This document shows, piece by piece, positions 2,491-32,000 of a DNA stretch of 32,000 nucleotides. A model generated the notes under the pieces. That model was not told the origin of the DNA. It ran no database searches and saw nothing but the letters and a program-made list of their open reading frames with translations. How positions within the stretch are numbered: the stretch's first letter is position 1; each line of letters starts with the position of its first letter. A program made the position numbers and the translations under genes. Source of the stretch: an uncultured bacterium (GTDB lineage Bacteria; Margulisbacteria; WOR-1; CAVSGV01); assembly GCA_963699255.1 (NCBI GenBank), contig OY969425.1, positions 420,001 to 452,000 on the forward strand, in the 5' to 3' direction.

Positions 2491-2492
2491 GT

Positions 2493-13077: not shown

Positions 13078-14159
<1,082 letters not shown>

Positions 14160-14165
14160 TCAAAC

Positions 14166-14813: not shown

Positions 14814-14818
14814 TAAAA

Positions 14819-14824
14819 CTCCTC
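14819..14824 (-). promoter_or_regulatory. Shine-Dalgarno (GAGGAG) of the nucleotidyltransferase gene, directly abutting the heptamer palindrome
   Basis: The minus strand reads ...CATCTC GAGGAG TTTTA GTG. Confidence 0.6.
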
Positions 14825-14886
14825 GAGATGTGAGATGTGAGATGCGAGATGCGATTTCACATCTCTCGTCTCGCGTCTCTCATCTC
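14825..14886. repeat. 62-nt palindrome built from 4+4 inverted heptamer repeats
   Basis: Plus strand: gagatgt gagatgt gagatgc gagatg | cgatttca | catctct cgtctcg cgtctct catctc. Arm-to-arm pairing over 27 positions is 22 Watson-Crick, 3 G-T and 2 mismatches. It fills almost the whole spacer between the msbA-like stop (14892) and the next gene's SD. Confidence 0.85.
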
Positions 14887-14891
14887 CTGAA

Positions 14892-17823: not shown

Positions 17824-18920
17824 AGTAAACTTTCTTTCAGGTCGACAGCATTATATTTGCACAGCTCTCGACAACAAAAACACATTATACACTTATTTTT
17901 GTTGATTTTGAACGATTTACCGTCGATCGCTTTTGCGGGGCATGACCTGACGCACATCATGCATTTGACGCACTTTTTGCCGTTGATCTTCGGCCGGACC
18001 TTTATCATGTTTATTATCGGTTTCAATATAAATTTAAATATTGCGGGCATTATGTTCAGGATGGCGGATACCTTGGTGGGATGTTCAAAATCCTTGTACT
18101 CCGGGAGCTTTTCGCCCAGCAGATCGATCTTGTCGATATCAGCTTCGCCAAGCCTTCTCTGGTACGCGATCCTTGTGGTCGGGATATCAAGGGGTTCAAA
18201 ATTCATGATTTTTGAACAGACAGCGTCAAGGGCTATAGTATCGGTCGAGGCTATAATGAGCCCAAGATCCCTTAATTTGCCGTTCGCGGGACCTTGCCCT
18301 TCCATTGCCGTGACAGCATCGGCTATCGTCACGGCCGGCCTGATCCTTTCAAAAAGGTCGACCAGCGCTTCCGAGAATTCTTCCCTCGAGGGAGTTTCAA
18401 GGTGGTAATTCACCTTGTGCAATCCGGGGACGCAGCCGAACATGTTCTTTATTCCGCATGTGAACAGGGTCAGTTCATGGGTCTTTAGCTTGGGGATATT
18501 GATGATCAGGTCGAACGACAGCGCGGTGTTCGAGATATATATGGGGTTTATTTTCCCGCCGGGGTTCTCGAATTTCCGCATTCCTTTCTCTTCAAAGTTA
18601 ACGATGGGGATACCAAGAGCCCGCATTCCGGTCGCTTTCAATACCTTATCATATAAAAGGTTGGCCCCTCCGGGGCTGTCGCCGATAAAAGGGGAGGCGC
18701 CGAGTTTTTTTACCTCATCGGCTATTGCTTTCACTATCGCCGGGTGCGTCGTTGCTCCCCGTTCGGGAGGGAGATCCGTAAGCAGGTTGGCCTTCAGGAG
18801 GACTTTTTGCCCGGGGCTTATCAGGCCGGATAAATCCAGGAGCTCGAATATCCGCTCGATAGATGAGGCGACGCTTTGTGGCGAATAATCACCGCATTTT
18901 ACGATGGCGACTTTTGGCAT
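17784..18920 (-). CDS. DUF362 domain protein with C-terminal 2x[4Fe-4S] ferredoxin-type domain
   Basis: KVAIVKCGDY...GQKVLLKANLL...GATTHPAIVKA is the DUF362 opening. C-terminus has CVKCMMCVRSCP and CIMCFCCRELC cysteine clusters. It overlaps the lpxB-like start by 40 nt. Confidence 0.8.
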   Translation of the reverse strand: MPKVAIVKCGDYSPQSVASSIERIFELLDLSGLISPGQKVLLKANLLTDLPPERGATTHPAIVKAIADEVKKLGASPFIGDSPGGANLLYDKVLKATGMRALGIPIVNFEEKGMRKFENPGGKINPIYISNTALSFDLIINIPKLKTHELTLFTCGIKNMFGCVPGLHKVNYHLETPSREEFSEALVDLFERIRPAVTIADAVTAMEGQGPANGKLRDLGLIIASTDTIALDAVCSKIMNFEPLDIPTTRIAYQRRLGEADIDKIDLLGEKLPEYKDFEHPTKVSAILNIMPAIFKFILKPIINMIKVRPKINGKKCVKCMMCVRSCPAKAIDGKSFKINKNKCIMCFCCRELCKYNAVDLKESLLWKALSGTRKTPT

Positions 18921-19885
18921 CAGAAGAAAAAGAACCGCCTTTTCATTTCATATGAACCGGCAAGCTTTTCTATTGCATCAGCCGCGGATCTCGTGGCGTA
19001 GCCGAGGTTGTAAAAAGATCTCCATTTCCAGTAATCCCTCAAGAATTTGTATTTATCGGGTTCGTTCAAAGCTTTTTTCACGGCTCGGGGCAAAGTTCCC
19101 CGGGTAGCGAATTCCCCGATCTGGAATATCCCGTAATGGCTCGCGGGCTCTTCCCATATGCCGTATTGCTGCCTGTCCCCGGTCATGTCTATCTGGACCA
19201 TTGGTTTATCAAGGATGGCGAATTCGATCATGATCGATGAAATATCTCCTATCAATAAGTCCGCCGCCAGCAAATATTTGTTCTTGTTCGGCTGCTTTAT
19301 CACTTTTTTACCCTCAAGTTTATGGAACATCTTGTCGTATTCATGGAGGCATAACAGGAGGTTCTTGAAGCCAAGGGCTTCAACCTCCGGAAGGGCATCG
19401 ATGCTGCCTTTTCTTTTTGCATCCTTATCGTCCCAGGAAGGAGCGAATATCACGATGGGTTCTTTGGGATCCAGCCCCAGTTCATTGATCACCTGATCTC
19501 TGGTGCTTTTCCCGTTCACCAGCTCATCGCTTTTCGGGAATCCGATCTCGATGTTGTTTTTGAACCGGGGAAAAACATGTTCCATCCTTTCCTTCCATAT
19601 CGGGCCGGTCATCAGCATGAAATCGGTCTTGGTATGGATCTGGTAGAGGGTGGTCTTTACAACGGCGACACCGTGCGGCATGAAAAATATCGGCCTTTTG
19701 AGCTTCTGGATTATCCCCGGATTCATATAGAGGACGCTTGCTATCAGCGTTCCGTCGATCTCATTTTTCGGAAAAGGCGTCCTCTCGCCCTGAAGTATCG
19801 CATGTCCGCGCTTTTTCAGCTCTTCTTCCACGGGCGTGAGGCAGGCTCTCTGGTACGGTTTATCGGAAAGGCTTTGAAGCTTCAA
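18920..19885 (-). CDS. TagB/TagF-family CDP-alditol phosphotransferase-like protein (Glyphos_transf)
   Basis: IVIFAPSWDD (compare YaPTWRd) and LLIGDISSIMIEFAILDKPMVQIDM (compare litDYSSv.fDf.ll.kPii.y..D). TTG start, so the N-terminus is uncertain. Confidence 0.6.
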   Translation of the reverse strand: MKLQSLSDKPYQRACLTPVEEELKKRGHAILQGERTPFPKNEIDGTLIASVLYMNPGIIQKLKRPIFFMPHGVAVVKTTLYQIHTKTDFMLMTGPIWKERMEHVFPRFKNNIEIGFPKSDELVNGKSTRDQVINELGLDPKEPIVIFAPSWDDKDAKRKGSIDALPEVEALGFKNLLLCLHEYDKMFHKLEGKKVIKQPNKNKYLLAADLLIGDISSIMIEFAILDKPMVQIDMTGDRQQYGIWEEPASHYGIFQIGEFATRGTLPRAVKKALNEPDKYKFLRDYWKWRSFYNLGYATRSAADAIEKLAGSYEMKRRFFFF

Positions 19886-19913: not shown

Positions 19914-19983
19914 GGAACCCGCGACTAAAAGTCGCGGTTCCATGTAAAAACACTTGGAACCGAGAGTTTCACTCTCAGGTTCC
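19914..19983 (-). repeat. Two tandem isomorphic hairpins, each clamped by GGAACC...GGTTCC
   Basis: 19914-19941 is ggaacccgcgact aaa agtcgcggttcc (12 bp, 1 bulged C). 19956-19983 is ggaaccgagagt ttc actctcaggttcc (12 bp, 1 bulged A). They are 14 nt apart. The second overlaps the last codons and TGA of rfbH. On the minus RNA it is followed by AAGUGUUUUUACAU. Confidence 0.7.
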
Positions 19984-21300
19984 AAAGTCTGCCATGAACT
20001 CATCAAAAACTTTGACGATGTACCGCAGCTTTTGTTCTGTGATCCCCGGGTAAACGCCTATCCAGAAAAGAGCGTTCATCACCGTGTCCGTATTCTTCAG
20101 ACCGCCCGAGATCCTGCATTTAATGTCAAGGTATGCCGGCTGTTTGGTCAGGTTCCCGCCGAACATCATCCTTGTCGCGATCTTTCTGCTCTCAAGAAAG
20201 TTTACTATATCCGCTCTCGTGAAAGGAGCATTCTTTTTCACGAGTATCGGGAATCCGAACCAGCTTGGTTCGGAGTGTTCTTCGGGGTGGGGAAGAAGGA
20301 GATATTTATCATATCCTCGAGATTTGAGACTTGAGATCAGAGATCTGAAGTTATTCTTCCTAGCTTTTATGAATCCCGGAAGCTTCTCAAGCTGCGCTAC
20401 TCCTATCGCAGCCTGCATATCGGTGATCTTAAAATTATATCCTATGTGAGAATAAACGTATTTATGGTCATAACCGAAAGGAAGTTTTCCGAATTGCTGG
20501 GAGAATCGCTTCCCGCAGGTATCGTCATGGCCCGGCTCGCACCAGCAGTCACGTCCCCAGTCGCGGAAAGACATCACTATCTTTTTTAGAAGGGGATCGT
20601 TCGTGAGCACAGCCCCTCCTTCTCCCGTCGTGATGTGATGGGGCGGATAGAAACTGCAGGTCGCCAGATGCCCGAAAGTGCCGGTATATCTGCCCCTGTA
20701 TTTTGAGCCAAGTGCATCGCAGTTGTCTTCTATGACCCAGAGCCTATGCTTTTTTGCGACCTTCATTATCTTATCGAGATCGACCGGATTTCCGAGAGTG
20801 TGGGCGACGAATATCGCCTTTGTTTTTTTAGAGATGGATTTTTCAATGATGTCCGCGTCAATGTTGTATGTGCCAAGCTCAACGTCAACGAAAACAGGGA
20901 CAAGATTATTTTGAAGGATCGGGTTCAGTGTTGTAGGAAAACCGCAGGCAACGGTTATTACCTCATCGCCGGGAACGAGCCTTCTTTTGCCAAGCTTCGG
21001 AGAAGTTAATGCTGACATAGCTAGGAGATTCGCCGATGAGCCGGAATTGACAAGCATGCAGTATTTGACGCCGAGTAAACGGGCGAGTTTCTTTTCGAAT
21101 TCGGCGGCGAACCTTCCGGCCGTGAGCCAGAAATCGAGCGATGAATCGACAAGATTAATCATTTCTTTTTCGTCATAAACCCGGCCTGAGTAATTTATCA
21201 TCGTTTTGCCCGGCAGGAATTTCTCCCCGATTTTTCTCTCCCTATGCAGCCTTTTTACCTTCTCAAATATCTCTTCGCGCAGTTTTTTCTCAGAGTTCAC
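19975..21300 (-). CDS. ddhC: CDP-6-deoxy-L-threo-D-glycero-4-hexulose 3-dehydrase (E1; RfbH/DdhC), PMP- and [2Fe-2S]-dependent
   Basis: Near-colinear with Salmonella/Yersinia RfbH: [60 protein letters not shown] (His replacing the PLP Lys), [42 protein letters not shown]. Confidence 0.9.
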
Positions 21301-21312
21301 GCTATCCGCCTT

Positions 21313-22257
21313 TCATTCATCGCACTTGGTCGTTTTGCAGTACTTCATGTATTCATCTTTTTCGATCGTTTTTCTGTCTATGTCGGGCAGGATCGAGCTG
21401 TAATATTGGAACAGTTCTTTCAAGGCGCTGTCCAGCGGAGTGAATTTAAAGCTGATCTCCTTTTGAAGCCTGGAATTGCTGCCGCTGTACTCCTTGCCCA
21501 GTCCGGGGTTCTTCACGATTATTTCGGACCTGAAGCCCGATATTTCATTGATCTTGTTCGCGATCGTCTTAAGGTCGACGGTGGCCCCGGTCGTCAGGTT
21601 ATATATATTGAATTTCGGCGAGTTCGACAGGAAACGCTCGACTATCTTTACAGCGTCATTGATGTACATGTAATCGAATCTGACGTTTTGATTTATCACT
21701 ATTGGAAGCTTTAAAAGGTTCTTTACTATCGCGTTCGATATGAATTTATATTCGTAGTCCTCATATCTGCCGAACATCCCGAATATGCGAAGGTTGAATA
21801 TGTTCTTTGACTTCTCCGCGAACTTTGAGCAGACATATTTGGAAAAGCTGTAATCATCAGCAGGGATGTGGTTGCCGAAGTAATCCTCGCTCATGCCCGG
21901 TTTGTAATTCTGCCTGTCATACTCCGCGCCGCTCCCGAAAAAGATCAGGCGCCGGTCATTATCCATAGCCTGGACAAGATCGAAGAACATGCGCAGGTTG
22001 GATGAAACAATGTCCGTTTTGCCGGCGTCATAACCGGTTTTTCTTGAGCCGCCGACGCTGGCGCAGTGGATGATGACGTCGATATTGCATTTTTTTATGA
22101 AACTTGAGACTTTGTCGGGGTCAGCCAGCTCCAGGTCTTTGTGATAAGGATAAAATAATGCATATTTTGACTGGAACTGGCCTAGATATTCCACCAGGTT
22201 CCTGCCCACGAATCCGCGGGCGCCCGTTATGAAAAGGTTCAGTTTCTTTTCGCTCAT
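21313..22257 (-). CDS. Extended-SDR NAD(P)-dependent sugar-nucleotide reductase/epimerase (candidate 4-keto or side-chain reductase of the dideoxyhexose pathway)
   Basis: LFITGARGFVGRNL Rossmann motif, catalytic YSFSKYVCS. It lies between the GT2 gene and rfbH. Specific reaction not determinable. Confidence 0.65.
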   Translation of the reverse strand: MSEKKLNLFITGARGFVGRNLVEYLGQFQSKYALFYPYHKDLELADPDKVSSFIKKCNIDVIIHCASVGGSRKTGYDAGKTDIVSSNLRMFFDLVQAMDNDRRLIFFGSGAEYDRQNYKPGMSEDYFGNHIPADDYSFSKYVCSKFAEKSKNIFNLRIFGMFGRYEDYEYKFISNAIVKNLLKLPIVINQNVRFDYMYINDAVKIVERFLSNSPKFNIYNLTTGATVDLKTIANKINEISGFRSEIIVKNPGLGKEYSGSNSRLQKEISFKFTPLDSALKELFQYYSSILPDIDRKTIEKDEYMKYCKTTKCDE

Positions 22258-22265
22258 TTTATGCC

Positions 22266-23195
22266 TTAAAAGTTTATTCTTTCCTTTTCGATCACCAGGG
22301 GCCTCTTTAGCACCTGGGTGTGTATCGATCCGATATATTCGCCCAGGATGCCTATAAAGAAAAGCTGGACGGACGCGAACAGGAAGAACCCTATGACCAG
22401 CGGCGCGATACCCACGGAAAAACTGCTCCAGAAGATTAACTTGTATATAAGATAACAGAAGCTCACCAATATGCAGGTAATGGACGACAGGAAGCCGACC
22501 ATTGTGGCTATCCTCAACGGGACTTTTGAATGATTGGTAATGCCAAGGATCGCCATGTCGTAAAGTATGTAGAAGTTGTTCTTTGTGGACCCTTTCTTCC
22601 TGACCGGCTGGGTGAACTCGACTTTCGCCACATCAAAACCTATGTCCGCGATCAATCCCCTGAAATAAGGGTATGGATCGTCTATCTCCCTCAGTATCTC
22701 TATCACTTTTTTATCATAAAGGCCGAATCCCGTGAAATTCTGTATCTGGTCGATCTCCGATAGTCTGCTGATGAGCCGGTAAAAGAACCTGCGAAAAGCG
22801 AACATGAGAGGGAATTCGTTGCTCCTTTTTTTGATCCCCACTACCACCTTATATCCTTCTTCCCATTTCTTAATAAATTCAGGGATAAGGGCAGGGGGGT
22901 CCTGAAGGTCCGAGGCCATGCCGATGACCGCGTCGCCGCTGCCCTGAAGGATGCCGTAGAACGGGGAGCGTATGTGCCCGAAATTGCGGGCGTTGACTAT
23001 TATCTTAAGGTTCTTGTCCTTTGCCGCCAGTTCTTTTAATATCGGCACGGTCCTGTCGGTGGAAGCGTTATCTATGAAGATGTGCTCGTATGAATAGTTC
23101 TTAAGCCCCGTGAATACCTCTTTCACCTTCATATATACGTCCCTTACGTTCGCCTCTTCATTATAACAGTATGTTACCACGCTGATTGATTTCAT
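22266..23195 (-). CDS. GT2 polyprenyl-phosphate glycosyltransferase (GtrB/ArnC/DPM1-like) with two C-terminal TM helices
   Basis: ISVVTYCYNEEANV, IFIDNASTDRT, MASDLQDPP (DxD-type). C-terminal hydrophobic segments IATMVGFLSSITCILVSFCYLI and IAPLVIGFFLFASVQLFFIGILG. Confidence 0.8.
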   Translation of the reverse strand: MKSISVVTYCYNEEANVRDVYMKVKEVFTGLKNYSYEHIFIDNASTDRTVPILKELAAKDKNLKIIVNARNFGHIRSPFYGILQGSGDAVIGMASDLQDPPALIPEFIKKWEEGYKVVVGIKKRSNEFPLMFAFRRFFYRLISRLSEIDQIQNFTGFGLYDKKVIEILREIDDPYPYFRGLIADIGFDVAKVEFTQPVRKKGSTKNNFYILYDMAILGITNHSKVPLRIATMVGFLSSITCILVSFCYLIYKLIFWSSFSVGIAPLVIGFFLFASVQLFFIGILGEYIGSIHTQVLKRPLVIEKERINF

Positions 23196-23207: not shown

Positions 23208-25004
23208 TTATTCCTTGATTGGATGAATGATCATTTCTTTCCTGAACTCTTCCCTCGGAAGGAACGGATACATGTCTTCCAGGGGCATTGAGACCATGGT
23301 CCCGTCGTCTTTCCTGCGGCTGGACACCGTCGGGATGACTTCCTGATCCCTGTCACAGAAGACCTCGCATATCACCGGTGAGTCGTATTTTATCATCATT
23401 TTTATGGTTTTTTCGAGTTCGCCGGACGTTCTTACGGATAAATACTTTATCCCGTATGCCTGGACGATCTTTTTTGTGCTGGGAAAAGACACGCCTGAGG
23501 AGCTATCTGTGCCGATAAGCCTTCCATCGAAGAACTTGGTCTGAGTCGCCCTGATCGAAAGATAGCCGTCGTTGTTCCATATGAAAAGTTTTATGGGGAG
23601 TTTATGGTGTACTATGGTCTGAAGCTCCTGGATGTTCATCTGAAAGGATCCGTCCCCGGTTATCCCGAACACTTCACGCCTGGTCTTTGCGAAACAAACG
23701 CCGATGCACGCAGGGACTGTGTATCCCATCTCTCCCTGCGCGCTTGAGGTGATATATCTTTGATCGTTCTTCAGTTTAATGCCCTGAGCTATGACGTAGG
23801 ATGTCGATCCCGCGTCGGCGATGACCACCGAATCCTTTTTTAAGAGATTTGACAGGGTTTCAATGAAATAATAAGTATTTATCCCTTTCCTGTCATTTTT
23901 ATATGAGGTCTGGTAGACGGGCCATTTCTTTTTCCAGCTTGAGCATTTATCCGACCATTTTTTCAATTCGGGCTTATCGGCGATCTTCAGTTTATCAATG
24001 AATCGTTTAGCGTCGGCGTTAATGAAGATGTCTATGCGGACGGTATTTTTTTTGTGTTCAACTGGATCTATGTCCACGACGACGATTTTTGCTTCCCTGG
24101 CGAACGTCTCGTATTCATGGCCGGTAGAGCTGACGCTCAGCCTGCTGCCGATAGCAATGACCAGGTCCGCGTTCTGGACGGCGAAATTCCCGGCGCGGTC
24201 GCCCTTGTTGCCGATCTTTCCGATGAACAGGGGATGGGCGGTGGGAATAAGTCCGATCCCCAGCCTTGATGCTACGACGGGGATGCCGGAGGTTTCCACA
24301 TAACGGGAGAATTCCTTTATGGCACCAGCGAGCCGTATCCCGCCCCCCGCCAAAATTACAGGCCTTTTTGATTTCGCTATTAATTCAGAAACTTTGTTCA
24401 TTTCGTCGTCGGTGGGGTCTTCCTTATAATCTTTTTTGATCTGTTTTTCCGAGAATCTCGGCAGTTCGTCCTCATCAATGACAGCGCCCTGGACATCAAG
24501 AGGGATATCCAGCCACACGGGGCCCGGCCTGCCGGACCTGGCCAGATAGACTGCCTTATCTATGTGATAGGCGATCTGTTTCGGATCGTTCACCATTTCG
24601 GCGTATTTCGTGATCGGCCTGACGATCGAGACTATGTCCGCTTCCTGCACTCCGAGCTGCCTCAACGGAAGGCCCGAATTCATTATCGTCTCTTTCCTTT
24701 TGCATTGTCCGGAGATGAACATGCAGGGGACATTATCCTGCCACGCGCCCAGGAGGCCGGTTATGGCGTTCGTCGCGCCGCAGCCTGTGGTGACATAGGC
24801 AACGCCGAAGTTCCCGTTATATTTAGCGTAAGATTCGGCTGCCATCGCGGATGCCTGTTCGTGGTGATTGCATATGGCTTTCAGATGCGGATGTTTTGCT
24901 ATGCCGTCCGAAAGGAACATCATTCCTCCGCCCGAGACCATGAACACTTCTTTAACCCCGAGCTTATATATACGGTCAGCGATGTAATCCGCGACCCTCA
25001 TCAT
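23208..25004 (-). CDS. Thiamine-diphosphate-dependent acetolactate-synthase-like enzyme (YerE-like candidate branched-chain sugar synthase)
   Basis: HHEQASAMAAESYAKYNGNFGVAYVTTGCGATNAITGLLGAWQDNVPCMFISGQ (Pyr domain with catalytic Glu) and GDGSFQMNIQELQTIVHHKLPIKLFIWNN (the GDG-X24-NN ThDP motif, counted). Start refined from 25067 to the ATG at 25004, which forms an ATGA overlap with the upstream stop and yields MMRVADYIA. Confidence 0.75.
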   Translation of the reverse strand: MMRVADYIADRIYKLGVKEVFMVSGGGMMFLSDGIAKHPHLKAICNHHEQASAMAAESYAKYNGNFGVAYVTTGCGATNAITGLLGAWQDNVPCMFISGQCKRKETIMNSGLPLRQLGVQEADIVSIVRPITKYAEMVNDPKQIAYHIDKAVYLARSGRPGPVWLDIPLDVQGAVIDEDELPRFSEKQIKKDYKEDPTDDEMNKVSELIAKSKRPVILAGGGIRLAGAIKEFSRYVETSGIPVVASRLGIGLIPTAHPLFIGKIGNKGDRAGNFAVQNADLVIAIGSRLSVSSTGHEYETFAREAKIVVVDIDPVEHKKNTVRIDIFINADAKRFIDKLKIADKPELKKWSDKCSSWKKKWPVYQTSYKNDRKGINTYYFIETLSNLLKKDSVVIADAGSTSYVIAQGIKLKNDQRYITSSAQGEMGYTVPACIGVCFAKTRREVFGITGDGSFQMNIQELQTIVHHKLPIKLFIWNNDGYLSIRATQTKFFDGRLIGTDSSSGVSFPSTKKIVQAYGIKYLSVRTSGELEKTIKMMIKYDSPVICEVFCDRDQEVIPTVSSRRKDDGTMVSMPLEDMYPFLPREEFRKEMIIHPIKE

Positions 25005-25732
25005 TTTTGTTTCTCCAGTATTTTTGAGATCGTTGCCTGGTCCCTGCTGTTGTCCAGGGGACGCCATATGCCGTTGAATCGGAAAGCAAAAAGTTCCTTC
25101 CTGGCGACGAGGTCCTCAAGAACGTCTTTTTCGAACACGCAGGAAGGAGAGCCCGAAAGCTTGTTCGATCTGAATATGGTCGAATTGAGGAAGTAAAAAC
25201 CTCCGTTTATGTAATCCTTTTCGAGTATCGGTTTTTCAGACAGCCCTTTGACGATATCCTCGTCGTCAACAAGCCCCAATATCCTGAACCTGGTGGGATT
25301 GTGTACGGCAAGGAGGGTAGCGGTCTTGCCGTGCGAAAGGTGGAAAGCAAGCTCTTCCTTCAGGTCCACATCGGAAAAAGTGTCGCCGTATGTCATGCAG
25401 AATGTCGGAGCAGAAATAAGGTCTTTGACCTGCGCAAGGCGTGAACCCGTCAGGTTATCTGTTCCGGTATCAACGGTCTTGATGTCCCATTCTTTCGGCA
25501 GAGATGATATATATTTTTTTATCATTTCGCCGCCGAAGCCGGTGCAGAGGATGAATTTTCGAAAACCCGCGTCGGCATAATGCCGGAATATATATTTAAG
25601 TATCGGAGTGCCGTTCATTTCCACCATCGGCTTCGGGATCACCTTGCCGTTGGGGCCCAGGTTTATGCCTCTTCCTCCCGCCAATATCACAACGGGCATT
25701 TCTTTTATCATCTTATCAAGTCCTTCGCTCAT
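25001..25732 (-). CDS. Divergent second copy of an RfbF-like sugar-1-phosphate cytidylyltransferase
   Basis: VVILAGGRGINLG...PKPMVEMNGTPIL, VDTGTDNLTGSRL, MTYGDTFSDVDL, INGGFYFLN, WRPLDNSRD parallel RfbF blocks. It lacks the roughly 30-aa insert of canonical RfbF. SD AAGGAGGA upstream. Confidence 0.7.
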   Translation of the reverse strand: MSEGLDKMIKEMPVVILAGGRGINLGPNGKVIPKPMVEMNGTPILKYIFRHYADAGFRKFILCTGFGGEMIKKYISSLPKEWDIKTVDTGTDNLTGSRLAQVKDLISAPTFCMTYGDTFSDVDLKEELAFHLSHGKTATLLAVHNPTRFRILGLVDDEDIVKGLSEKPILEKDYINGGFYFLNSTIFRSNKLSGSPSCVFEKDVLEDLVARKELFAFRFNGIWRPLDNSRDQATISKILEKQK

Positions 25733-25742
25733 ACGTCCTCCT

Positions 25743-26570
25743 TCAGTTCAGGGGTTTAAGATCTGCGAGTCCGGCGTTCCTCAACATTTCAGCGAGTTCA
25801 TCGATGGCATCCGGACATCCAACGGCAAAATTCACCTTGCTTGAACCCTCCAGGCATTCATAGTATACCTTTGCTCCTGCCCTTTTAGCTACAGAAATGG
25901 CTCCCGCCACATCCCAGACCCTGTTCGCTATGCCGTAGGCGGCCTGAAGCCTGCCGGACGCGACGTAGCATATGTTAACGGATGCCGAACCAAGCCTGAG
26001 GCAACCGCGGCTGGCGTCGTTCACGTTTCCGAAAAACTTATATTCGTTCCTTCTTTTATCGTCATCCGAGTGGTTCCCCGAGAAACTCGCGACGACAAGC
26101 GAGTCTTTGAGCCTGGCAGGGGACAGCCGCAGTCTTTTACCGTTCTTGTAAGCGCCTTCATCTCCCATCGTGAAATATATTTCTTTCAATGCCGGCAGGG
26201 CCACGGCTCCAACGAGGAATTTGTTCCCCTCTATCAGCCCGACAGAAGAGGAATAAAAGGGGATCGAGGATATGAAATTCGTCGTGCCGTCAATAGGATC
26301 TACCATCCAAACCGGAGCATGAGCGGGGAGAACAAGGGCATCGCCCTTTGTCGATTCTTCTCCCACTATGCCGTATTTTGAGACTGAAAGGATCTTTTTA
26401 ATGTGTTGTTCTATGGCGATGTCCAGCTCCGTTACAATGTCCCTGTAGCTGCTTTTCGTCGAGACGGCCAGTCCTTCCGTGTGCGTTTCTTCTATTATGT
26501 CCGCGCTGGTGGAGACGGCTTTCAGCGCGAGCTCTGATTCATTCATCCATTTGAAATCCATTTTCATCAC
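25743..26570 (-). CDS. Inositol-monophosphatase-family sugar/alditol phosphatase (IMPase/FBPase/CysQ superfamily)
   Basis: GIVGEES, WMVDPIDGTTNF, VWDVAGAISV (WD..AG motif). The start is either the GTG at 26570 or the ATG at 26567; both overlap the upstream stop. Confidence 0.8.
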   Translation of the reverse strand: MMKMDFKWMNESELALKAVSTSADIIEETHTEGLAVSTKSSYRDIVTELDIAIEQHIKKILSVSKYGIVGEESTKGDALVLPAHAPVWMVDPIDGTTNFISSIPFYSSSVGLIEGNKFLVGAVALPALKEIYFTMGDEGAYKNGKRLRLSPARLKDSLVVASFSGNHSDDDKRRNEYKFFGNVNDASRGCLRLGSASVNICYVASGRLQAAYGIANRVWDVAGAISVAKRAGAKVYYECLEGSSKVNFAVGCPDAIDELAEMLRNAGLADLKPLN

Positions 26571-27679
26571 TTTCTTGATCTCTCTATCAGGGCCTCAAGC
26601 TCTGATACGATCTTCGGCAGCCTCTCCCTCATTACTATCTCAAGGGCTTCGCCTTTTCTTAAACCGAGGATATAGGTCAAGAGAAATTTTGGAGATAAGG
26701 TCTTTCTTAAGAAGCTCAGGTGTCTGTCTTCGTCAGCCTCGTTCTCAAAGAGAAGCGCACTCGTAATGCCGGTCAGGATGTTCCGCGGCGTGAATCCGAG
26801 AGAAAGACATATCTGCGCGGCCCCGATCAATCTGCCTTCCAGATCAAGCTTCCTGAGAGGTTCCCTTGCCACACGGGATATGGGATCGTGCAGAAGGACG
26901 TTCGAGAACCTCTGGAGCTCTTTTTCCGCGTACCAGTCAAGGAACGAGTGGGGGATGTCCCATTTCAGCTTGAGAGCCGTCAGCATCTCCTTCATAGCTC
27001 CGGAAACTATTTTCCTGTTGTCGGGATAATTCATTGATTCGTGTATGTAAGTCGCTCCCACCAGCGCTCCCAGATATGCCGTTATGCAGTGAGGCGTGTT
27101 ATGCAGGTACAGCTTTGCGGTCCATTGTTTGTTCAGCTCCGCCTGAGTGCAGAAATTCATATTTCCTTTTATGCCCTTTGCCCCTTCATCAATGAACATT
27201 ACTCCGTCCTCGGTTATTATTGAAAGAGGGTCTTTGGCCAGTAACTCGGCGGATGCCGTGTTGGACGTGATTACGTCGGGCACCGCAAAATACACCCTTT
27301 CATAGTTCAATGCGTTCCGGACCAGCGTGACGGTCTGGGGATCGTTCTCGCTGAGTATGACGGGACATTTCACGCCGGTAAGGCAGGCGGCGGCGGAAAG
27401 CGCGTTACGCGGACCCACGTTCATGAAAACGGCCTCGGCTCTAGTATGGTCGGACATCCGGAACTCAGAATGGTGATAAGCGGCTTTTACGTTCACAATC
27501 AGTTCTTCAAGCTTGTTGTTCTTTGCCTTATAAGAGTGGTATTTTTTCCGTTCGTTGAGGCTTTTCACCAGATCCCTGTTGGCATCGACGAAAATGAATT
27601 CATACTGTCCTTTTTCAAATATCCAAGGGAGGTAGCCTCTACCGATCGCCCCGGCGCCGAGAATGATGATTTCTTTCAT
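26567..27679 (-). CDS. Mannitol-1-phosphate 5-dehydrogenase-like (MtlD / mannitol dehydrogenase family) oxidoreductase
   Basis: IIILGAGAIGRGYL (compare MtlD HFGAGNIGRGF), LHNTPHCITAYLGALVG (compare LNTGHAITAYLG), ISRVAREPLRKLDLEGRLIGA (compare VERVGRQPLRKLSAGDRLI). Start refined to the ATG at 27679 (MKEIIILGAG), 4 nt after the upstream stop. Confidence 0.7.
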   Translation of the reverse strand: MKEIIILGAGAIGRGYLPWIFEKGQYEFIFVDANRDLVKSLNERKKYHSYKAKNNKLEELIVNVKAAYHHSEFRMSDHTRAEAVFMNVGPRNALSAAACLTGVKCPVILSENDPQTVTLVRNALNYERVYFAVPDVITSNTASAELLAKDPLSIITEDGVMFIDEGAKGIKGNMNFCTQAELNKQWTAKLYLHNTPHCITAYLGALVGATYIHESMNYPDNRKIVSGAMKEMLTALKLKWDIPHSFLDWYAEKELQRFSNVLLHDPISRVAREPLRKLDLEGRLIGAAQICLSLGFTPRNILTGITSALLFENEADEDRHLSFLRKTLSPKFLLTYILGLRKGEALEIVMRERLPKIVSELEALIERSRK

Positions 27680-27683
27680 GTTA

Positions 27684-29171
27684 TTAAAGGTTTTCCCCCA
27701 GCTGCCAGGGAACGAATTCTTCTCTGTCCAGCCCTTGAGATTCATTAGAGGTCTTTGTTCCGTTAGCTGTCTTCAGGAAAAAATTATATATCTCGCGCCC
27801 TGCTTCAGCAAGGTTGTTTTGGTGCAGGGATCTTCCGGCGTCGATGTCCATATCGTTCTTTAGCCTGTTATAAAGTTCCGAGGTAGAGGCTATCTTTATC
27901 GTGGGCGCGATAGGGCAGCCGAACATCGAGCCTCTCCCGGTCGTGAAGGCGATAAGGTTGCAGCCGCCCGCCGCCATTCCCGTTACCGACACCGGATCGA
28001 AACCGGGCGTGTCCATGAAAACAAGGCCTTTCCTGGTGATGCGCTCTCCGTAATCGATAACCTGTTCGATAGGGGACGAGCCGCCTTTTTTGATCGCGCC
28101 AAGACTTTTTTCCAGTATTGTCGTGATCCCTCCCTCCAGGTTGCCCGGAGCTAGGTTATTGTTCATGCTGAAGCTGTTCTTTTCGGCCCATTCGTTCCAC
28201 CACGAAAATTTTTTCATCAGCCTGCGCCTGTCACTGTCTCTTACGCAGCGCCGAGCGAGATATTTTTCGGCTCCGAAACACTCCGGCGTTTCCCCCAGGA
28301 CAATAGTCCCGCCTTTGGAGACAAGAATATCCCCGGCCATTCCAAGGGCCTGATTGGCCGTTATCGCGGAGAATGCGTCGCTGCCTCCGCAGTTAAGTGC
28401 GACAGTAAGCATGGAAACGGGCAGGGCGGTCCTTTTGAGTTTCGGAAGCATGGAAATTATCCTGTTCAATCTGGCCATCCCGAGTTCGACAGCTTTTTTT
28501 GTTCCGCCCGCATCCTGAATATTGAAAGATTCAATAATGGGTCGTCCTGACCTCTCTTTTGCGCTCAAGCATGAATTTATGCTTTTTATCGTTATATCCT
28601 CGCATCCCAGACCGATGACCAGCGCCCCGACGACATTCGGATGATAGATCCATCCGGCAAGGGTCCTGTTCAGCAACCTGTCCGATAGACCGCCGATCGC
28701 CTGTGCGCATCCGCTGCCGTGCGTTACCGGTATTATGCCGTCTACATTTATCTTTGAAAGGTCCCTTTTTTCAAAGCAGCGGGCAACTTCTCTGACAACA
28801 CTTGCGGAGCAGTTAACCGATGATACTATGATAATGTAATTTCGCGTGCCCGCGCGGCCGTCTTTTCGAAGATACCCCTGGAAATGAGAGGGCAGGGCAT
28901 TCCCTTTTTTTACGGGCCCGGGTTTGGGCATTGAAAAACTCAGCTTGTCAGAAAAGGCCATGTTGTGAACATGCACGTGTTCGCCGGGCTTGATGTTCCT
29001 TGTGGCAAGGCCTATCGGCTGTCCGAGCTTTATTACCGGTTTTCCTGAACCGATGGGCCTGAGTGCGATCTTATGTCCTGCGGGAACGGTCTTATGCCTA
29101 GCGATAACAACTCCCACATTGTCTTTGGGATCAATCACGATGTAAGCATTGTTTATTATTTTATTGGTCAT
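27684..29171 (-). CDS. UxaA/GarD-family sugar-acid dehydratase (altronate/galactarate dehydratase family; SAF N-domain)
   Basis: DNVGVVIA...VPAGHKIALRPIGSGKPVIKLGQPIGLATRNIKPGEHVHVHNM is the N-terminal SAF signature of UxaA/GarD. 495 aa as in E. coli UxaA. Conserved Cys-containing core VNCSASV, GSGC, GLGCE. Confidence 0.8.
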   Translation of the reverse strand: MTNKIINNAYIVIDPKDNVGVVIARHKTVPAGHKIALRPIGSGKPVIKLGQPIGLATRNIKPGEHVHVHNMAFSDKLSFSMPKPGPVKKGNALPSHFQGYLRKDGRAGTRNYIIIVSSVNCSASVVREVARCFEKRDLSKINVDGIIPVTHGSGCAQAIGGLSDRLLNRTLAGWIYHPNVVGALVIGLGCEDITIKSINSCLSAKERSGRPIIESFNIQDAGGTKKAVELGMARLNRIISMLPKLKRTALPVSMLTVALNCGGSDAFSAITANQALGMAGDILVSKGGTIVLGETPECFGAEKYLARRCVRDSDRRRLMKKFSWWNEWAEKNSFSMNNNLAPGNLEGGITTILEKSLGAIKKGGSSPIEQVIDYGERITRKGLVFMDTPGFDPVSVTGMAAGGCNLIAFTTGRGSMFGCPIAPTIKIASTSELYNRLKNDMDIDAGRSLHQNNLAEAGREIYNFFLKTANGTKTSNESQGLDREEFVPWQLGENL

Positions 29172-29908
29172 AATCTGATTTTTAGCCCATCAAGCGCGGC
29201 GGTAGAATCGGCAAATATCTTTCTCGCCTGTATCTGAGCCGTCTCTCTCTCCCTGATCGTTTGATATTCATATGCGTCGAAATGCGTAAGGGCGAGTTTT
29301 CTTGAGCTTGAATTGACCGCGAGCTTTGCCGCAAGCTGCGGGTTCATGTGAGGCCAGTTCGGTGAAGTGCGTCCCGGCGCCAACGAGCATTCCGATATCA
29401 GAAGATCGGCATTTTTTGAAAGATCGACGGACGCCTTGCAGTATCCCGTATCGGTACAATAGCTTATTATTTTATCATCAATTTTGAACCTGTAGCCATA
29501 GCAGTCAGAGGCATGCTTAAGCTTTAAGCACCTGAATGTTACAGGATTTGAATTCCAGCCGATGCTGATATCATGGATCCTGCAGGGATATGACAGCCTG
29601 TTCGGCGGAATGGAGAATTTCCTGCCCAGGAAATTCGTGATCGTTCTCCTGGTGCCCGGCTGGCCGAAAATATCGAGCCTTTTGAAGTTGAACTTTGCGA
29701 GAACATGCAGCCCTTCAATATGATCAAGATGGAAATGGCTTAAAAAAAGATAGACCGGTTTGTTCTCTTTGATGTATCTGTCGGCTTTATAGATGCCGTT
29801 GCCCGCGTCAAGTATGATGTAGCATTTTTTTGCGTCAATAAGCGTGCATATTGTATTGCCTGTATTTGAATCATACCAGCCGTTAGTCCCCAGAAATATT
29901 ATTTTCAT
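29168..29908 (-). CDS. Metallo-beta-lactamase-fold hydrolase
   Basis: LSHFHLDHIEGL (HxHxDH), a downstream CTDTGY block (candidate metal-ligand Asp) and LTHFD. Confidence 0.8.
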   Translation of the reverse strand: MKIIFLGTNGWYDSNTGNTICTLIDAKKCYIILDAGNGIYKADRYIKENKPVYLFLSHFHLDHIEGLHVLAKFNFKRLDIFGQPGTRRTITNFLGRKFSIPPNRLSYPCRIHDISIGWNSNPVTFRCLKLKHASDCYGYRFKIDDKIISYCTDTGYCKASVDLSKNADLLISECSLAPGRTSPNWPHMNPQLAAKLAVNSSSRKLALTHFDAYEYQTIRERETAQIQARKIFADSTAALDGLKIRL

Positions 29909-30288
29909 GCAAAGCTCCAGAATTTTAGCCCAAAAAAGGTGAATAACGGGAGGAAAAAGATAAAGAACAACTGGGCGATCCTCGGGTCGATCTTCAAAAT
30001 CTCAACGAAGACCGGGAGAAGCGCCGCGTTTATCACAAGGGTCGCCGCATAGACGATTATGAACCTCGGAAGTTCTCTTTTGAAGTGATGCTCGGACGTG
30101 AAGACCCAGTATTTGTTCCAGAAATAGCTATTGAGAAGCCCGATGAAGAATGAGATCAGCAGAGCGATAAAATAGTGGAACTTAAGATACAGGAGCAGAT
30201 AATATATGCCATATCCGATGACGGTATTAGCTGCGCCGATGATCGCGAATTTAATGAGTTGAACAGAAATGTTGAATAGCCAGGGCAT
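29905..30288 (-). CDS. GtrA-family small membrane protein (polyprenyl-phosphate-sugar translocase family)
   Basis: 127 aa with four hydrophobic helices. KFAIIGAANTVIGYGIYYLL and NSYFWNKYWVF are typical GtrA blocks. Confidence 0.8.
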   Translation of the reverse strand: MPWLFNISVQLIKFAIIGAANTVIGYGIYYLLLYLKFHYFIALLISFFIGLLNSYFWNKYWVFTSEHHFKRELPRFIIVYAATLVINAALLPVFVEILKIDPRIAQLFFIFFLPLFTFFGLKFWSFA

Positions 30289-30307
30289 TACTGATCTTTT
30301 CCTTTTT

Positions 30308-31351
30308 TCACGCTTCCATATACTCCGATATTTGATCGATGCATACTTTTCTCATGTCTTTTTTCCCTTTGTAAGCGCGCGTCCATTGTGTGATATTATC
30401 GATGGCGCTTTCGATATCCACTTTAGGGCTCCATTTAAGGGCATCTTTTGCCTTTGAACTGTCGAGCATCAATAATCGGGTTTCATGCGGATGTTCCTTC
30501 TTGTCCACCACATATGAAGCATCTTTCCCCCATTTAGAGCAGAGCGTTCTGACAAGCCATTCAACGGTCTTCGCATCCTTATCAGCTGGGCCAAAGTTCC
30601 AGGCTTCGGCGTATCTCTGCCCGCCCTCATAAAGCTTGCGCGCCAGGATCAGGTATCCGTTTAGAGGATCCAGGACATACTGCCACGGCCTGATCGCTTT
30701 TGGGTTCCTTATGTGGATCTTTTCGCCTTTAAGTATGGCCCTGATGAAATCGGGCACCAGCCTGTCAACTCCCCAGTCGCCGCCGCCGATGACGTTGCCG
30801 GCCCTTGCTGTTGCCACAGCAATGCCGTTTTTCAAGAAAGAATCCCTGTAAGCGGAGGTTACGAGTTCGGAACAAGCCTTGCTGCTTGAATAAGGGTCAT
30901 ATCCTCCGAGCGGCTCGGTCTCTCTGTAGCCGGTCGTCTTTTCCTTGTTCTCATATATCTTGTCGGTCGTCACGTTAATGACGGCTCTTACGCTTGGACA
31001 GCTTCTGATCGACTCGAGGAGATTGACCGTTCCCATAATGTTCACGGCGTAGGTTTCAACGGGGTCCTTGTAAGACCTCCTGACCAGAGGCTGGGCAGCC
31101 ATATGGATAACGATCTCCGGCTTTGCCGCCATAATAGTTTTTTTCAATGATCCAAGATCCCGGATATCGGCTGTTATTGACCTGACAAGATCGTCCATCT
31201 TGCAAATTTCAAATAGACTGGGCTTTGTTGGAGGTTTAAGGGCGTATCCGGTCACTTTCGCTCCCAATAGATTCAGCCAGAGACAAAGCCAGGAGCCTTT
31301 GAATCCAGTGTGGCCGGTAATGAAGACCTTCTTGTTCTTCCAGAAGTTCAT
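30308..31351 (-). CDS. ddhB: CDP-glucose 4,6-dehydratase (RfbG/DdhB)
   Basis: FWKNKKVFITGHTGFKGSWLCLWL is the RfbG hallmark. YSSSKACSE catalytic YxxxK. ATGA overlap with the rfbF stop. Confidence 0.9.
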   Translation of the reverse strand: MNFWKNKKVFITGHTGFKGSWLCLWLNLLGAKVTGYALKPPTKPSLFEICKMDDLVRSITADIRDLGSLKKTIMAAKPEIVIHMAAQPLVRRSYKDPVETYAVNIMGTVNLLESIRSCPSVRAVINVTTDKIYENKEKTTGYRETEPLGGYDPYSSSKACSELVTSAYRDSFLKNGIAVATARAGNVIGGGDWGVDRLVPDFIRAILKGEKIHIRNPKAIRPWQYVLDPLNGYLILARKLYEGGQRYAEAWNFGPADKDAKTVEWLVRTLCSKWGKDASYVVDKKEHPHETRLLMLDSSKAKDALKWSPKVDIESAIDNITQWTRAYKGKKDMRKVCIDQISEYMEA

Positions 31352-32000
31352 TTCCAGACTTTCCAGGGAGCTTTATTGGAATTCCACAATTCATTCAGGT
31401 GATTTACGTCCCTCATGGTATCCATGCAGTGCCAGAATCCGTCGTGGCTGAAAACATTCAACTCACGTTCTTTTGTAAGCTTCTTTATAGGCTCTCTTTC
31501 AAAGAAACAATCTTTATCGCCGATATAATCAAAGCTTTCTTTTTTTAACGCGAAGAAACCGCCGTTTATGTAAGCATCAGTGACCTGAGGCTTTTCATGG
31601 AAATCCGATACAAGGCCGTCCTTTATGATAAGCTCGCCGAAACGGGATTCGGCATGAATTCCCGTAAGTGTCGCGATCTTGCCAGACCTGAGATGGAAGT
31701 CATAAAGCTTTTTTATGTCTATATCAGATACGCCATCGCCGTATGTGAGCATAAAATCATCGGTATCGACGTACTTTTCGATCTTCTTTATCCTTCCTCC
31801 GGTCATCGTGTTCTGCCCAGTATCAACAAGCGTGACATTGAATTTTTCACGGTCGGATTTTTTGTGTATGGTGACCTTCGCGCTAGAGCCGAACTGAAGA
31901 GTAAGGTCGTTGTTCAGCGCCTCGTAATTCAGGAAATACTCTTTTATCATGTCACCTTTATACCCCAGGCAAATAATGAAATCATTGAAACCGTGGCTCA
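31348..32000 (-). CDS. ddhA: Glucose-1-phosphate cytidylyltransferase (RfbF/DdhA), 5' end beyond the right window edge
   Basis: The frame stays open upstream of the track ATG (31950) to the window edge: ...SHGFNDFIICLGYKGDMIKEYFLNY (compare RfbF HGIKDFIICCGYKGYVIKEYFANY). Downstream: VTLVDTGQNTMTGGRI, LTYGDGVSDIDI, INGGFFAL, GFWHCMDTMRD, APWKVW. Confidence 0.9.
   Translation of the reverse strand, partial: SHGFNDFIICLGYKGDMIKEYFLNYEALNNDLTLQFGSSAKVTIHKKSDREKFNVTLVDTGQNTMTGGRIKKIEKYVDTDDFMLTYGDGVSDIDIKKLYDFHLRSGKIATLTGIHAESRFGELIIKDGLVSDFHEKPQVTDAYINGGFFALKKESFDYIGDKDCFFEREPIKKLTKERELNVFSHDGFWHCMDTMRDVNHLNELWNSNKAPWKVWK

Follow-up and report, generated by a model that had tools for sequence, protein, structure and literature searches.

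The 32,000-nucleotide stretch of DNA analysed here (positions 420,001 to 452,000 of contig OY969425.1, GenBank assembly GCA_963699255.1; hereafter the window) comes from an uncultured bacterium of the Margulisbacteria lineage WOR-1 and is occupied by a single long minus-strand glycan operon. Within it, a block of five genes at 25001-29908 combines enzyme families better known from hexuronate, mannitol and inositol metabolism. Judged by gene content and sequence, four of these five genes constitute a widespread, undescribed cassette that travels with a thiamine diphosphate (ThDP)-dependent sugar-branching enzyme. The cassette comprises an acid-sugar dehydratase, a reductase resembling mannitol-1-phosphate dehydrogenase (M1PDH) and a phosphatase of the inositol monophosphatase (IMPase) family, together termed the triad, and in most cases a paralogue of the cytidylyltransferase RfbF (NTP2). 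The most likely role of the cassette is to equip a dideoxy sugar of the cell surface with a long polyhydroxy side chain. We tentatively propose, at a little under an even chance, that the block forms the side-chain arm of a pathway to an acyl-branched deoxysugar. This pathway would be a variant, based on a dehydratase, of the scheme that yields yersiniose, erwiniose, caryophyllose and gastriose.

Open reading frames (ORFs) of the window were scored with Pfam domains and with NCBIfam equivalog models at their curated cut-offs, and were compared with protein sequences in the PDB. All five ORFs of the block exist on the minus strand and have strong Pfam matches. An earlier listing of their order is corrected here; as transcribed, with the ThDP gene downstream, the genes are:

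29168..29908, minus strand: metallo-beta-lactamase (MBL)-fold hydrolase of the RNase Z / phosphodiesterase-like type (PF12706, Lactamase_B_2, E = 2e-20)
27684..29171, minus strand: UxaA/GarD-family acid-sugar dehydratase (GD_AH_C E = 6e-92, GD_AH_second E = 6e-36, SAF E = 4e-5)
26567..27679 (ORF to 27745), minus strand: M1PDH-like reductase (Mannitol_dh and Mannitol_dh_C, E = 5e-23 and 2e-9)
25743..26570, minus strand: IMPase-family sugar/polyol-phosphate phosphatase (PF00459, E = 8e-44)
25001..25732, minus strand: RfbF-like sugar-1-phosphate nucleotidyltransferase paralogue, NTP2 (NTP_transferase E = 7e-18; TIGR02623 190 bits against a cut-off of 300)
23208..25004 (ORF to 25067), minus strand: YerE/JanthE-like ThDP-dependent carboligase (three TPP domains)

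Genes of the block either overlap by 4 nt or are spaced by no more than about 10 nt and are translationally coupled; this coupling extends to rfbG/gtrA on the upstream side and to the downstream ThDP gene. A reading made from the sequence alone had described five overlapping or coupled genes between gtrA/rfbG and the ThDP enzyme, and its account of the ORFs, overlaps, flanks and family names is accurate in each respect. Since homologues of the reductase are 371-375 aa long and those of the ThDP enzyme 596-598 aa, the two genes most likely start at 27679 and 25004, the latter start giving an ATGA overlap with the NTP2 stop. None of the five block proteins reached an NCBIfam equivalog cut-off. 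On these scores they are members of their families, not orthologues of UxaA, GarD, MtlD, SuhB or RfbF.

Comparison loci (given L numbers, and P numbers for homologous proteins) were gathered by a genome scan with the UxaA-like protein, a metagenome scan and exact-protein lookups. The triad was found to adjoin the gene of a YerE-like ThDP enzyme both in the window and in 18 further loci (L001, L003, L005, L006, L007, L087, L089, L091, L092, L094, L097, L102, L103, L104, L112, L113, L115 and L119), usually in the order dehydratase, reductase, IMPase, nucleotidyltransferase, ThDP enzyme. Carriers include an Omnitrophota metagenome-assembled genome (MAG), a Deltaproteobacteria MAG, Bacteroidales, Methanospirillum and a genome of 72% GC, among others. 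In the genome scan, all seven loci with a dehydratase homologue of at least 49% identity carry the reductase, the IMPase and the ThDP gene. The 78 loci at 41-48% identity, mostly from Devosia, Planctomycetota and other Alphaproteobacteria, served as a negative control, and none has these partners. Furthermore, 55 of the 120 top reductase homologues share a contig with a top-120 dehydratase homologue, equal length of the longest contig being taken as a proxy. An exact-match lookup of the window UxaA-like protein returned no match.

These distributions redraw the block. The sequence-only reading had treated the ThDP enzyme as a mere boundary, when it is instead the constant partner in 18 further loci; conversely, of the five genes grouped together there, the dehydratase, reductase, IMPase and mostly the nucleotidyltransferase do co-occur, but the MBL gene is not tied to them. 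That the block is biosynthetic is upheld: a catabolic operon in related genomes had been named as the finding that would overturn this view, and the present data contradict it, with no transporter or regulator in the window block and with generic UxaA loci lacking the partners. The combination of genes was not found in the searchable literature, which took in neither the first JanthE paper nor the in-silico survey of more than 200 YerE-like clusters by Krug et al. (2024).

The setting of the cassette varies. In L113 (GCA_044229975.1, 72% GC; 8505-16050) a dehydratase-reductase-IMPase-nucleotidyltransferase operon lies 1.6 kb from a YerE-like ThDP gene on the opposite strand, surrounded by MarR and TetR regulators, OsmC and an EamA transporter and with no glycan genes; here, the cassette may work outside surface-glycan loci. 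L119 contains a compact ThDP-aldolase-dehydratase-reductase/IMPase-nucleotidyltransferase cassette behind a transposase gene, and the locus ends about 500 bp past the nucleotidyltransferase gene.

Two further loci deserve description in their own right. L005 (Methanospirillum sp., GCA_053578395.1; 1-21560) adds to the triad and YerE-like ThDP gene a split E1-type and a split transketolase-type ThDP system, heptose-activation genes (GmhA, HldE-like, HAD), a radical SAM enzyme, methyltransferases and a transaldolase/fructose-6-phosphate aldolase (FSA) gene, a gene content pointing to a highly elaborate branched sugar. Most proteins of the window are 80-95% identical to their counterparts in its close relative L003, but RfbG (66%), the MBL protein (61%) and the dehydratase (62%) are far more diverged, and gtrA lies at a different place (27684-31351 compared); the pattern points to recombination with a breakpoint between the dehydratase gene and that of the reductase.

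The dehydratase has the SAF, GD_AH_second and GD_AH_C architecture. It scores 302 bits against the galactarate dehydratase model, for which the cut-off is 731, and its best PDB match is GarD (6U7L, 249 bits). As only relatives of at least 49% identity have its gene context in the genome scan, the protein represents, on sequence and context, a separate UxaA/GarD subfamily outside catabolic context. In four loci (L097, L102, L103 and L104; class II) the slot upstream of the reductase is filled by an enolase-superfamily protein of about 440 aa, alongside reductases 49-54% identical to that of the window. This protein belongs to the L-fuconate dehydratase/ENOSF1 subgroup, scoring 333 bits against ENOSF1 and 302 bits against Xanthomonas FucD. 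That acid-sugar dehydratases of two unrelated families occupy one slot is, as judged from these matches, a case of non-orthologous displacement, and selection therefore seems to act on the formation of a 2-keto-3-deoxy sugar acid. UxaA-family enzymes yield 2-keto-3-deoxy acids.

A route to an activated keto-deoxy sugar acid had been one of two alternatives offered by the sequence-only reading. Its first half gains support from the two non-homologous dehydratase families, which point to a keto-deoxy sugar acid as the product, but the acid is probably not nucleotide-activated as such. Because the block is constantly partnered by the ThDP enzyme, the keto acid is more likely a substrate of that enzyme than an activated sugar; the nucleotidyltransferase is RfbF-like, not CMP-Kdo-synthetase-like.

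A different context was encountered in a Desulfobacterales MAG (L111, 90-13145), where the triad lies within a nonribosomal peptide synthetase (NRPS) cluster. In that cluster the terminal adenylation-peptidyl carrier protein-thioesterase (A-PCP-TE) module continues in frame into the UxaA-like domain, reductase and IMPase form a single fusion protein, and the place of the ThDP gene is taken by a DegT aminotransferase. NRPSs bearing a sugar-acid dehydratase domain seem not to have been described before. The usual substrates of the DegT family are keto sugars; the aminotransferase of L111 might conceivably be a second kind of 2-keto-acid consumer.

We compared the ThDP enzyme of the window with characterised relatives. 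It scores 458 bits against JanthE (PDB 8RPH), a YerE-like carboligase coupling 2-keto acids to ketones, versus 273 bits against the best acetolactate synthase, and falls far under all acetohydroxyacid synthase (AHAS) equivalog cut-offs (411 versus 976). Additionally, no AHAS small-subunit gene adjoins it among the annotated neighbouring ORFs. By these measures, the protein is a YerE/JanthE-like carboligase of the type involved in sugar C-branching and not an acetolactate synthase; for the L113 ThDP gene, too, JanthE is a better match than AHAS. In a tree, the ThDP enzymes of the cassette loci fall into several distant clades with 31-45% identity to that of the window, while the reductases of the same loci stay 49-66% identical to its reductase. 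The association must therefore have been kept or rebuilt repeatedly.

YerE transfers a two-carbon unit from pyruvate onto CDP-4-keto-3,6-dideoxy-D-glucose (PMC9306805; reviewed in PMC12247030). Its relatives ErwE, MMAR_2332 and MyGE use C4-C8 4-hydroxy-2-keto acids in the formation of erwiniose, caryophyllose and gastriose, respectively (Steitz et al. 2022, PMC9306805), and in those clusters the keto acids come from pyruvate aldolases (PMC9306805; PMC12247030). Some YerE-like enzymes are promiscuous for C3 to C8 donors (PMC9306805). The window resembles the published pathways (yersiniose A, YerE/YerF; erwiniose, ErwE/F/I/J; caryophyllose, MMAR_2331/2332; gastriose, MyGE/MygI; PMC9306805) in joining a YerE/JanthE-like ThDP enzyme to RfbF, RfbG and RfbH genes of the probable CDP-4-keto-3,6-dideoxy-D-glucose route, a short-chain dehydrogenase/reductase (SDR) and glycosyltransferases, and in having a neighbouring gene that can supply a 4-hydroxy-2-keto (3-deoxy) acid, the donor class of ErwE, MMAR_2332 and MyGE. 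It differs in the nature of that gene. Theirs encodes a pyruvate aldolase, accompanied for erwiniose by an acetaldehyde dehydrogenase, whereas in the window an acid-sugar dehydratase stands in its place and neither an HpcH/HpaI aldolase nor any other aldolase was found among the annotated ORFs. Moreover, the cassette always adds the M1PDH-like reductase and the IMPase, and usually the RfbF paralogue.

Among NCBIfam models, the reductase matches M1PDH best (155.9 bits; cut-off 404), with 26 bits to tagaturonate reductase and 22 bits to fructuronate reductase. The bifunctional MtlD model covers only the dehydrogenase part of the protein, and no phosphotransferase system (mtlA) or MtlR genes occur among the window ORFs. 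In M1PDH from S. aureus, residues R283, R287 and R294 bind the substrate phosphate (PMC6623548). We found the catalytic Asn/Lys/Asn/His residues (N134, K211, N216, H219) and R291, R294, R298, K299 and R305 to be kept in the window reductase and in nine relatives (10 of 10), a set that includes the archaeal copy, the NRPS-linked copy and copies paired with the FucD-type dehydratase. E. coli MtlD also has these residues, whereas E. coli UxuB and UxaB are without three of the arginines. Because the phosphate-binding arginines of M1PDH are kept, the substrate of the reductase is, on residue conservation, a phosphorylated ketose or polyol and not a uronate, and the enzyme is predicted to act on a phosphorylated 2-ketose or alpha-hydroxyketone.

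Superficially, the gene pair recalls the Ashwell pairs UxaB/UxaA (tagaturonate reductase and altronate dehydratase) and UxuB/UxuA, in which a mannitol-dehydrogenase-family reductase stands beside a dehydratase yielding 2-keto-3-deoxygluconate (KDG). The window reductase, however, has the M1PDH arginines and scores some 130 bits higher against M1PDH than against the uronate reductase models; the window is without a UxaC isomerase, transporter or regulator, and its context is biosynthetic. A reading in which the reductase is a UxaB/UxuB analogue making altronate or mannonate was rejected on account of these arginines, which are not found in UxuB and UxaB.

In cassette loci the IMPase gene always adjoins that of the reductase, and the two are fused in two genomes (L111 and L119; proteins P0298 and P0309). 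Such fusions indicate consecutive steps, and the IMPase is predicted to act directly after the reductase. Its second-best NCBIfam match is a bifunctional fructose-bisphosphatase (FBPase)/IMPase. The M1PDH and phosphatase system of Acinetobacter provides a parallel in its coupling, sometimes by fusion, of an M1PDH-type reductase with a phosphatase: a ketose phosphate is first reduced and then loses its phosphate. The Acinetobacter phosphatase is HAD-type, whereas that of the window is of the IMPase family, and the window pair is locked to a dehydratase and to ThDP or NRPS partners and not to osmoprotection. We also considered the order reductase, phosphatase, dehydratase on one hexose-level skeleton and set it aside: the sole fitting substrate would be 2-keto-6-phosphogluconate, which is already a 2-keto acid.

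The remainder of the operon supplies what would be the acceptor arm. Transcription runs from RfbF (cut by the window end) through RfbG, GtrA and the MBL, dehydratase, mannitol-dehydrogenase-family and IMPase proteins to the RfbF-like nucleotidyltransferase and the three-domain ThDP enzyme, then to a PgfS/ArnC-like family 2 glycosyltransferase (GT2), an SDR, RfbH and a weak TagF-like match, and lastly to a DUF362-4Fe4S protein, an LpxB-like protein, an ABC exporter and a nonulosonic-acid section. Features outside the block that enter the argument are:

31348..32000, minus strand: rfbF, glucose-1-phosphate cytidylyltransferase, acceptor arm step 1 (5' end cut by the window edge, frame open to the window end; TIGR02623 240.9 bits, model positions 59-255)
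30308..31351, minus strand: rfbG, CDP-glucose 4,6-dehydratase, acceptor arm step 2 (TIGR02622 500.6 bits against a cut-off of 278)
29905..30288, minus strand: GtrA-family membrane protein, a probable helper in polyprenyl-phosphate-linked sugar translocation (PF04138 E = 9.5e-26)
22266..23195, minus strand: GT2 polyprenyl-phosphate glycosyltransferase, PgfS/ArnC-like (PF00535; NCBIfam PgfS 193 bits and ArnC-type 108 bits, both under cut-off)
21313..22257, minus strand: extended SDR, reductase/epimerase (PF01370 E = 6e-24; NCBIfam matches weak)
19975..21300, minus strand: rfbH (E1), CDP-6-deoxy-L-threo-D-glycero-4-hexulose 3-dehydrase, acceptor arm step 3 (NF011936 723 bits against a cut-off of 423)
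18920-19885, in the minus-strand operon: TagF-like gene, weak match (PF04464 65 bits; TarF 34 bits against a cut-off of 550)
17784-18920, minus strand: DUF362 protein with a C-terminal 4Fe-4S dicluster domain, also in L003 and L108
14166-14813: IspD/MobA-type nucleotidyltransferase
1762-2496, minus strand: IolB, 5-deoxy-glucuronate isomerase (NCBIfam equivalog 250 bits against a cut-off of 205)

As RfbG and RfbH both exceed their curated cut-offs, RfbF, RfbG and RfbH are, on model scores, taken to encode the route to CDP-4-keto-3,6-dideoxy-D-glucose, and the CDP-dideoxyhexose setting recognised by the sequence-only reading stands. RfbH was found in most of the long cassette loci. The SDR has orthologues beside the ThDP or RfbH genes in L003, L006, L097, L108 and L115 and is a candidate YerF-like side-chain ketoreductase. 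GT2 genes adjoin the ThDP gene also in L003, L087, L108, L109 and L112, and the enzyme probably loads the finished sugar onto a lipid carrier; a GtrA gene is likewise present in L003, L109 and L112.

Evidence on the RfbF paralogue is mixed. Its best PDB match is RfbF (1TZF), and its GXGTR(L) nucleotide-binding signature is degenerate, reading GRGINL in the window and GGNEANI, GGDPVDL or GGKPVLH in relatives; in the first RfbF genes of related loci, GXGTR is mostly intact, with GMGMR in one case. The paralogue lies beside the cassette in most loci (nearly all of the bacterial ones) and is absent from L005 (Methanospirillum) and L111 (NRPS). In L089, L112, L113 and L115 it is the only nucleotidyltransferase in view, accompanied by a 4,6-dehydratase-like SDR in L089, L112 and L115 and by RfbH in L112 and L115. 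Since it is the sole nucleotidyltransferase seen in these four loci, mostly in the company of sugar-pathway genes, it is probably a nucleotidyltransferase of the acceptor arm. By analogy with GalF and GMPPA, it may also be catalytically altered or regulatory.

MBL genes occur in the window, L003, L006 and L087 and are missing from most cassette loci. In the cassette-free locus L109, the MBL gene sits between RfbH and a ThDP gene whose product is 68% identical to that of the window. We infer that the MBL gene is optional and belongs with RfbH and the ThDP enzyme, not with the cassette. L109 itself (9224-14740) carries RfbF-RfbG-RfbH-MBL-ThDP followed by a GNAT acetyltransferase and two aminotransferases, a gene set that predicts an acetamido-alkyl C-branched dideoxyhexose, a further undescribed variant.

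From these components we propose the following pathway. The dehydratase would make a 2-keto-3-deoxy sugar acid of the type of KDG or its 6-phosphate (KDPG). In the first step, a phospho-aldonate such as 6-phosphogluconate would be converted by the dehydratase to a KDPG-type acid. The ThDP enzyme would then decarboxylate this acid and attach the remaining polyhydroxyacyl unit at C-4 of the CDP-keto sugar; the resulting acyloin, an alpha-hydroxyketone four carbons from a phosphate, would resemble fructose-6-phosphate. In the third and fourth steps, the ketone of the acyloin would be reduced by the M1PDH-like enzyme and the terminal phosphate taken off by the IMPase. The predicted product, CDP-3,6-dideoxy-4-C-(1,3,4,5-tetrahydroxypentyl)hexose, differs from caryophyllose by the loss of the terminal methyl and would then be handed by the GT2 and GtrA proteins to the lipid carrier. 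The order starting from a phospho-aldonate seems chemically the most coherent, because only a central metabolite is used and each enzyme acts on an analogue of the usual substrate of its family. Caryophyllose is 3,6-dideoxy-4-C-(D-altro-1,3,4,5-tetrahydroxyhexyl)-D-xylo-hexose (PMC5706390), and a donor of the 3-deoxy keto-acid type would be expected to leave a CH2 such as the one at C-2 of the caryophyllose side chain.

Several observations weigh against this pathway. We know of no UxaA- or FucD-type dehydratase that takes a phosphorylated aldonate; if the substrate of the dehydratase is unphosphorylated, the block would have no enzyme making a carboxylate from the reductase/phosphatase product. 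The cassette-free loci L109 and L110, which have RfbF, RfbG and RfbH, carry ThDP relatives 67-68% identical to the window enzyme that nest within its clade in the tree and are identical to it at five of five positions near the JanthE active site. Cassette-bearing and cassette-free ThDP enzymes differ at 14 columns, mostly conservatively; none of the 14 is shared with the distant cassette-bearing ThDP enzymes and none falls at a JanthE active-site position. With no separating column and identical active-site positions, the sequences thus give no hint of a specialised donor pocket. By the same contig-length proxy as above, a top reductase homologue accompanies only three of the 120 top ThDP homologues. 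Either these ThDP enzymes are promiscuous, as MyGE is, or pyruvate is used everywhere and the cassette has another job. An HpcH/HpaI aldolase gene, belonging to the donor-making family of the published scheme, directly follows the ThDP gene in five cassette loci (L091, L104, L112, L115 and L119), so that dehydratase and aldolase coexist there, and the window already has, in the SDR, an enzyme that could fill the YerF-type reductase role. An AscD-type E3 reductase was not found among the annotated ORFs of the window; the only redox candidate for that role is the DUF362-4Fe4S protein, which is kept with the cluster in the window, L003 and L108 and could be the missing electron donor of the 3-deoxygenation. 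Finally, no sugar-pathway or sugar-nucleotide genes lie within 10 kb of the L113 cassette.

The close kinship of cassette-bearing and cassette-free ThDP enzymes is what would be expected if the enzyme took pyruvate, as YerE does, with or without the cassette. The cassette would then make a separate component, its 2-keto-3-deoxy acid serving as acceptor in an AHAS-like reaction, or a polyol or deoxy-aldonic acid being attached elsewhere on the glycan. The interleaving of the two sets in the tree, their identity at positions near the JanthE active site, the many close ThDP homologues on contigs without the reductase and the triad of L111, which has no ThDP enzyme at all, are all consistent with this explanation. 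We nevertheless regard it as unlikely, as the cassette stands beside YerE-like enzymes of several distant clades in 18 further loci, which is hard to account for without a shared substrate; moreover, the C3-C8 promiscuity of some YerE-like enzymes (PMC9306805) makes an unchanged pocket compatible with a long donor. The absence of sugar-nucleotide genes around L113, together with the compactness of the L119 cassette behind its transposase gene, leaves room for a self-contained pathway of five enzymes with a logic like the first methylerythritol phosphate (MEP) steps. Here, the ThDP enzyme would join the keto acid to an aldose phosphate, and ketoreduction, trimming of one phosphate and cytidylylation would give an NDP-activated higher-carbon deoxy-alditol or sugar independently of the CDP-dideoxyhexose genes. 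The fructose-6-phosphate-like reductase site would fit an acyloin built on erythrose-4-phosphate. RfbH, however, is found in most long cassette loci, RfbF-like nucleotidyltransferases use anomeric hexose-1-phosphates, the nucleotidyltransferase is missing from the archaeal locus L005, and sugar genes may follow beyond the end of L119. We give this pathway a low probability, below that of general pyruvate use.

The other alternative of the sequence-only reading, a CDP-mannitol branch feeding the TagF-like transferase, is weakened by the present analysis. Fructose-6-phosphate would be reduced to mannitol-1-phosphate by the M1PDH-like enzyme, the RfbF paralogue would make CDP-mannitol or another NDP-alditol, and a phosphotransferase would add the alditol phosphate; the IMPase would act as a fructose-bisphosphatase or proofreading phosphatase, and the dehydratase and ThDP steps would run in parallel. 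Retention in the reductase of every mannitol- and phosphate-binding residue of true M1PDHs, the adjoining nucleotidyltransferase in nearly all bacterial loci, the TagF-like gene at 18920-19885 and the FBPase/IMPase match of the phosphatase all suit such a branch. Known and proposed CDP-alditol routes (CDP-ribitol, TarI/TarJ; the pneumococcal NDP-mannitol route) likewise place a ketose-phosphate reductase, a nucleotidyltransferase and a TagF-family gene in one locus. The pneumococcal route, however, which had been cited as established, is only a proposal of Bentley et al. (2006, PMC1391919), by which fructose-6-phosphate would give an NDP-linked mannitol phosphate precursor in two steps. TagF-like genes co-occur with the cassette in three loci only (the window, L003 and L108). 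The coupled and at times fused phosphatase argues for a dephosphorylated alditol phosphate, which would destroy the substrate of the nucleotidyltransferase; the latter is RfbF-like (hexose-1-phosphate type) and not IspD/TarI-like, with a degenerate GXGTR, and is missing beside the triads of L005 and L111. The separate IspD/MobA-type nucleotidyltransferase at 14166-14813 could serve the TagF-like enzyme, and CDP-alditol routes have no place for the dehydratase and ThDP partners, leaving the strict link to an acid-sugar dehydratase unexplained. On balance, we consider a CDP-alditol branch improbable, at much the same level as general pyruvate use. Least probable by far is a catabolic hexuronate or alditol operon that lies inside the glycan locus by chance. 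The families are indeed typical of hexuronate, mannitol and inositol catabolism, but the block has no transporter, regulator, isomerase or kinase of those pathways and no protein meeting an equivalog cut-off; its genes are coupled to glycan genes on one side and to the ThDP gene on the other, and in the genome scan the subfamily members all have the partners that the 78 generic UxaA loci lack.

Two further candidates were rejected. Myo-inositol catabolism offers a parallel of IMPase, dehydrogenase, dehydratase, an IolD-like ThDP enzyme and IolB (1762-2496). It was set aside, as the ThDP enzyme is JanthE-like, no IolD model is among the 25 NCBIfam matches listed of 54, and acid-sugar dehydratases need a carboxylate. 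The protein that passes the IolB cut-off is encoded at the distal end of the glycan operon with ATP-grasp ligases and an SDR around it, an odd place for an inositol-catabolic enzyme. A route of the L-galactose/L-fucose type, from NDP-sugar through sugar-1-phosphate and free sugar to aldonate, lacks an aldose dehydrogenase.

The side-chain pathway may be one use of a more general module. It is possible, though rather doubtful, that the dehydratase, M1PDH-like reductase and IMPase form a portable unit, not recognised before, that converts a central phospho-sugar acid to a polyhydroxy 2-keto acid or 3-deoxy chain. This would feed YerE-like ThDP carboligases in surface-glycan loci of many bacterial phyla and of methanogens among the archaea and, in Desulfobacterales, an NRPS/aminotransferase line. 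A so far undescribed family of C-branched sugars (C11-C12) would then be expected, as would a new building block of polyhydroxy type for peptides and an aldolase-independent donor supply for ThDP carboligases. The analysis further singles out a subfamily of M1PDH in which the phosphate site is intact and the substrate is probably something other than fructose-6-phosphate.

Caryophyllose, erwiniose and other long C-branched sugars are rare surface antigens, and the only explanation of their biosynthesis to date has the keto acids made by aldolases. Should the dehydratase cassette act as proposed, ThDP carboligases, which are sought for tertiary alcohol synthesis, would gain an enzymatic source of chiral polyhydroxy keto-acid donors. 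The presence and side-chain type of branched sugars would become predictable from sequence, and, given the cassette in Omnitrophota, Bacteroidales, Desulfobacterales, a Deltaproteobacteria MAG, Methanospirillum and many metagenome contigs, such sugars would be far commoner than known structures suggest.

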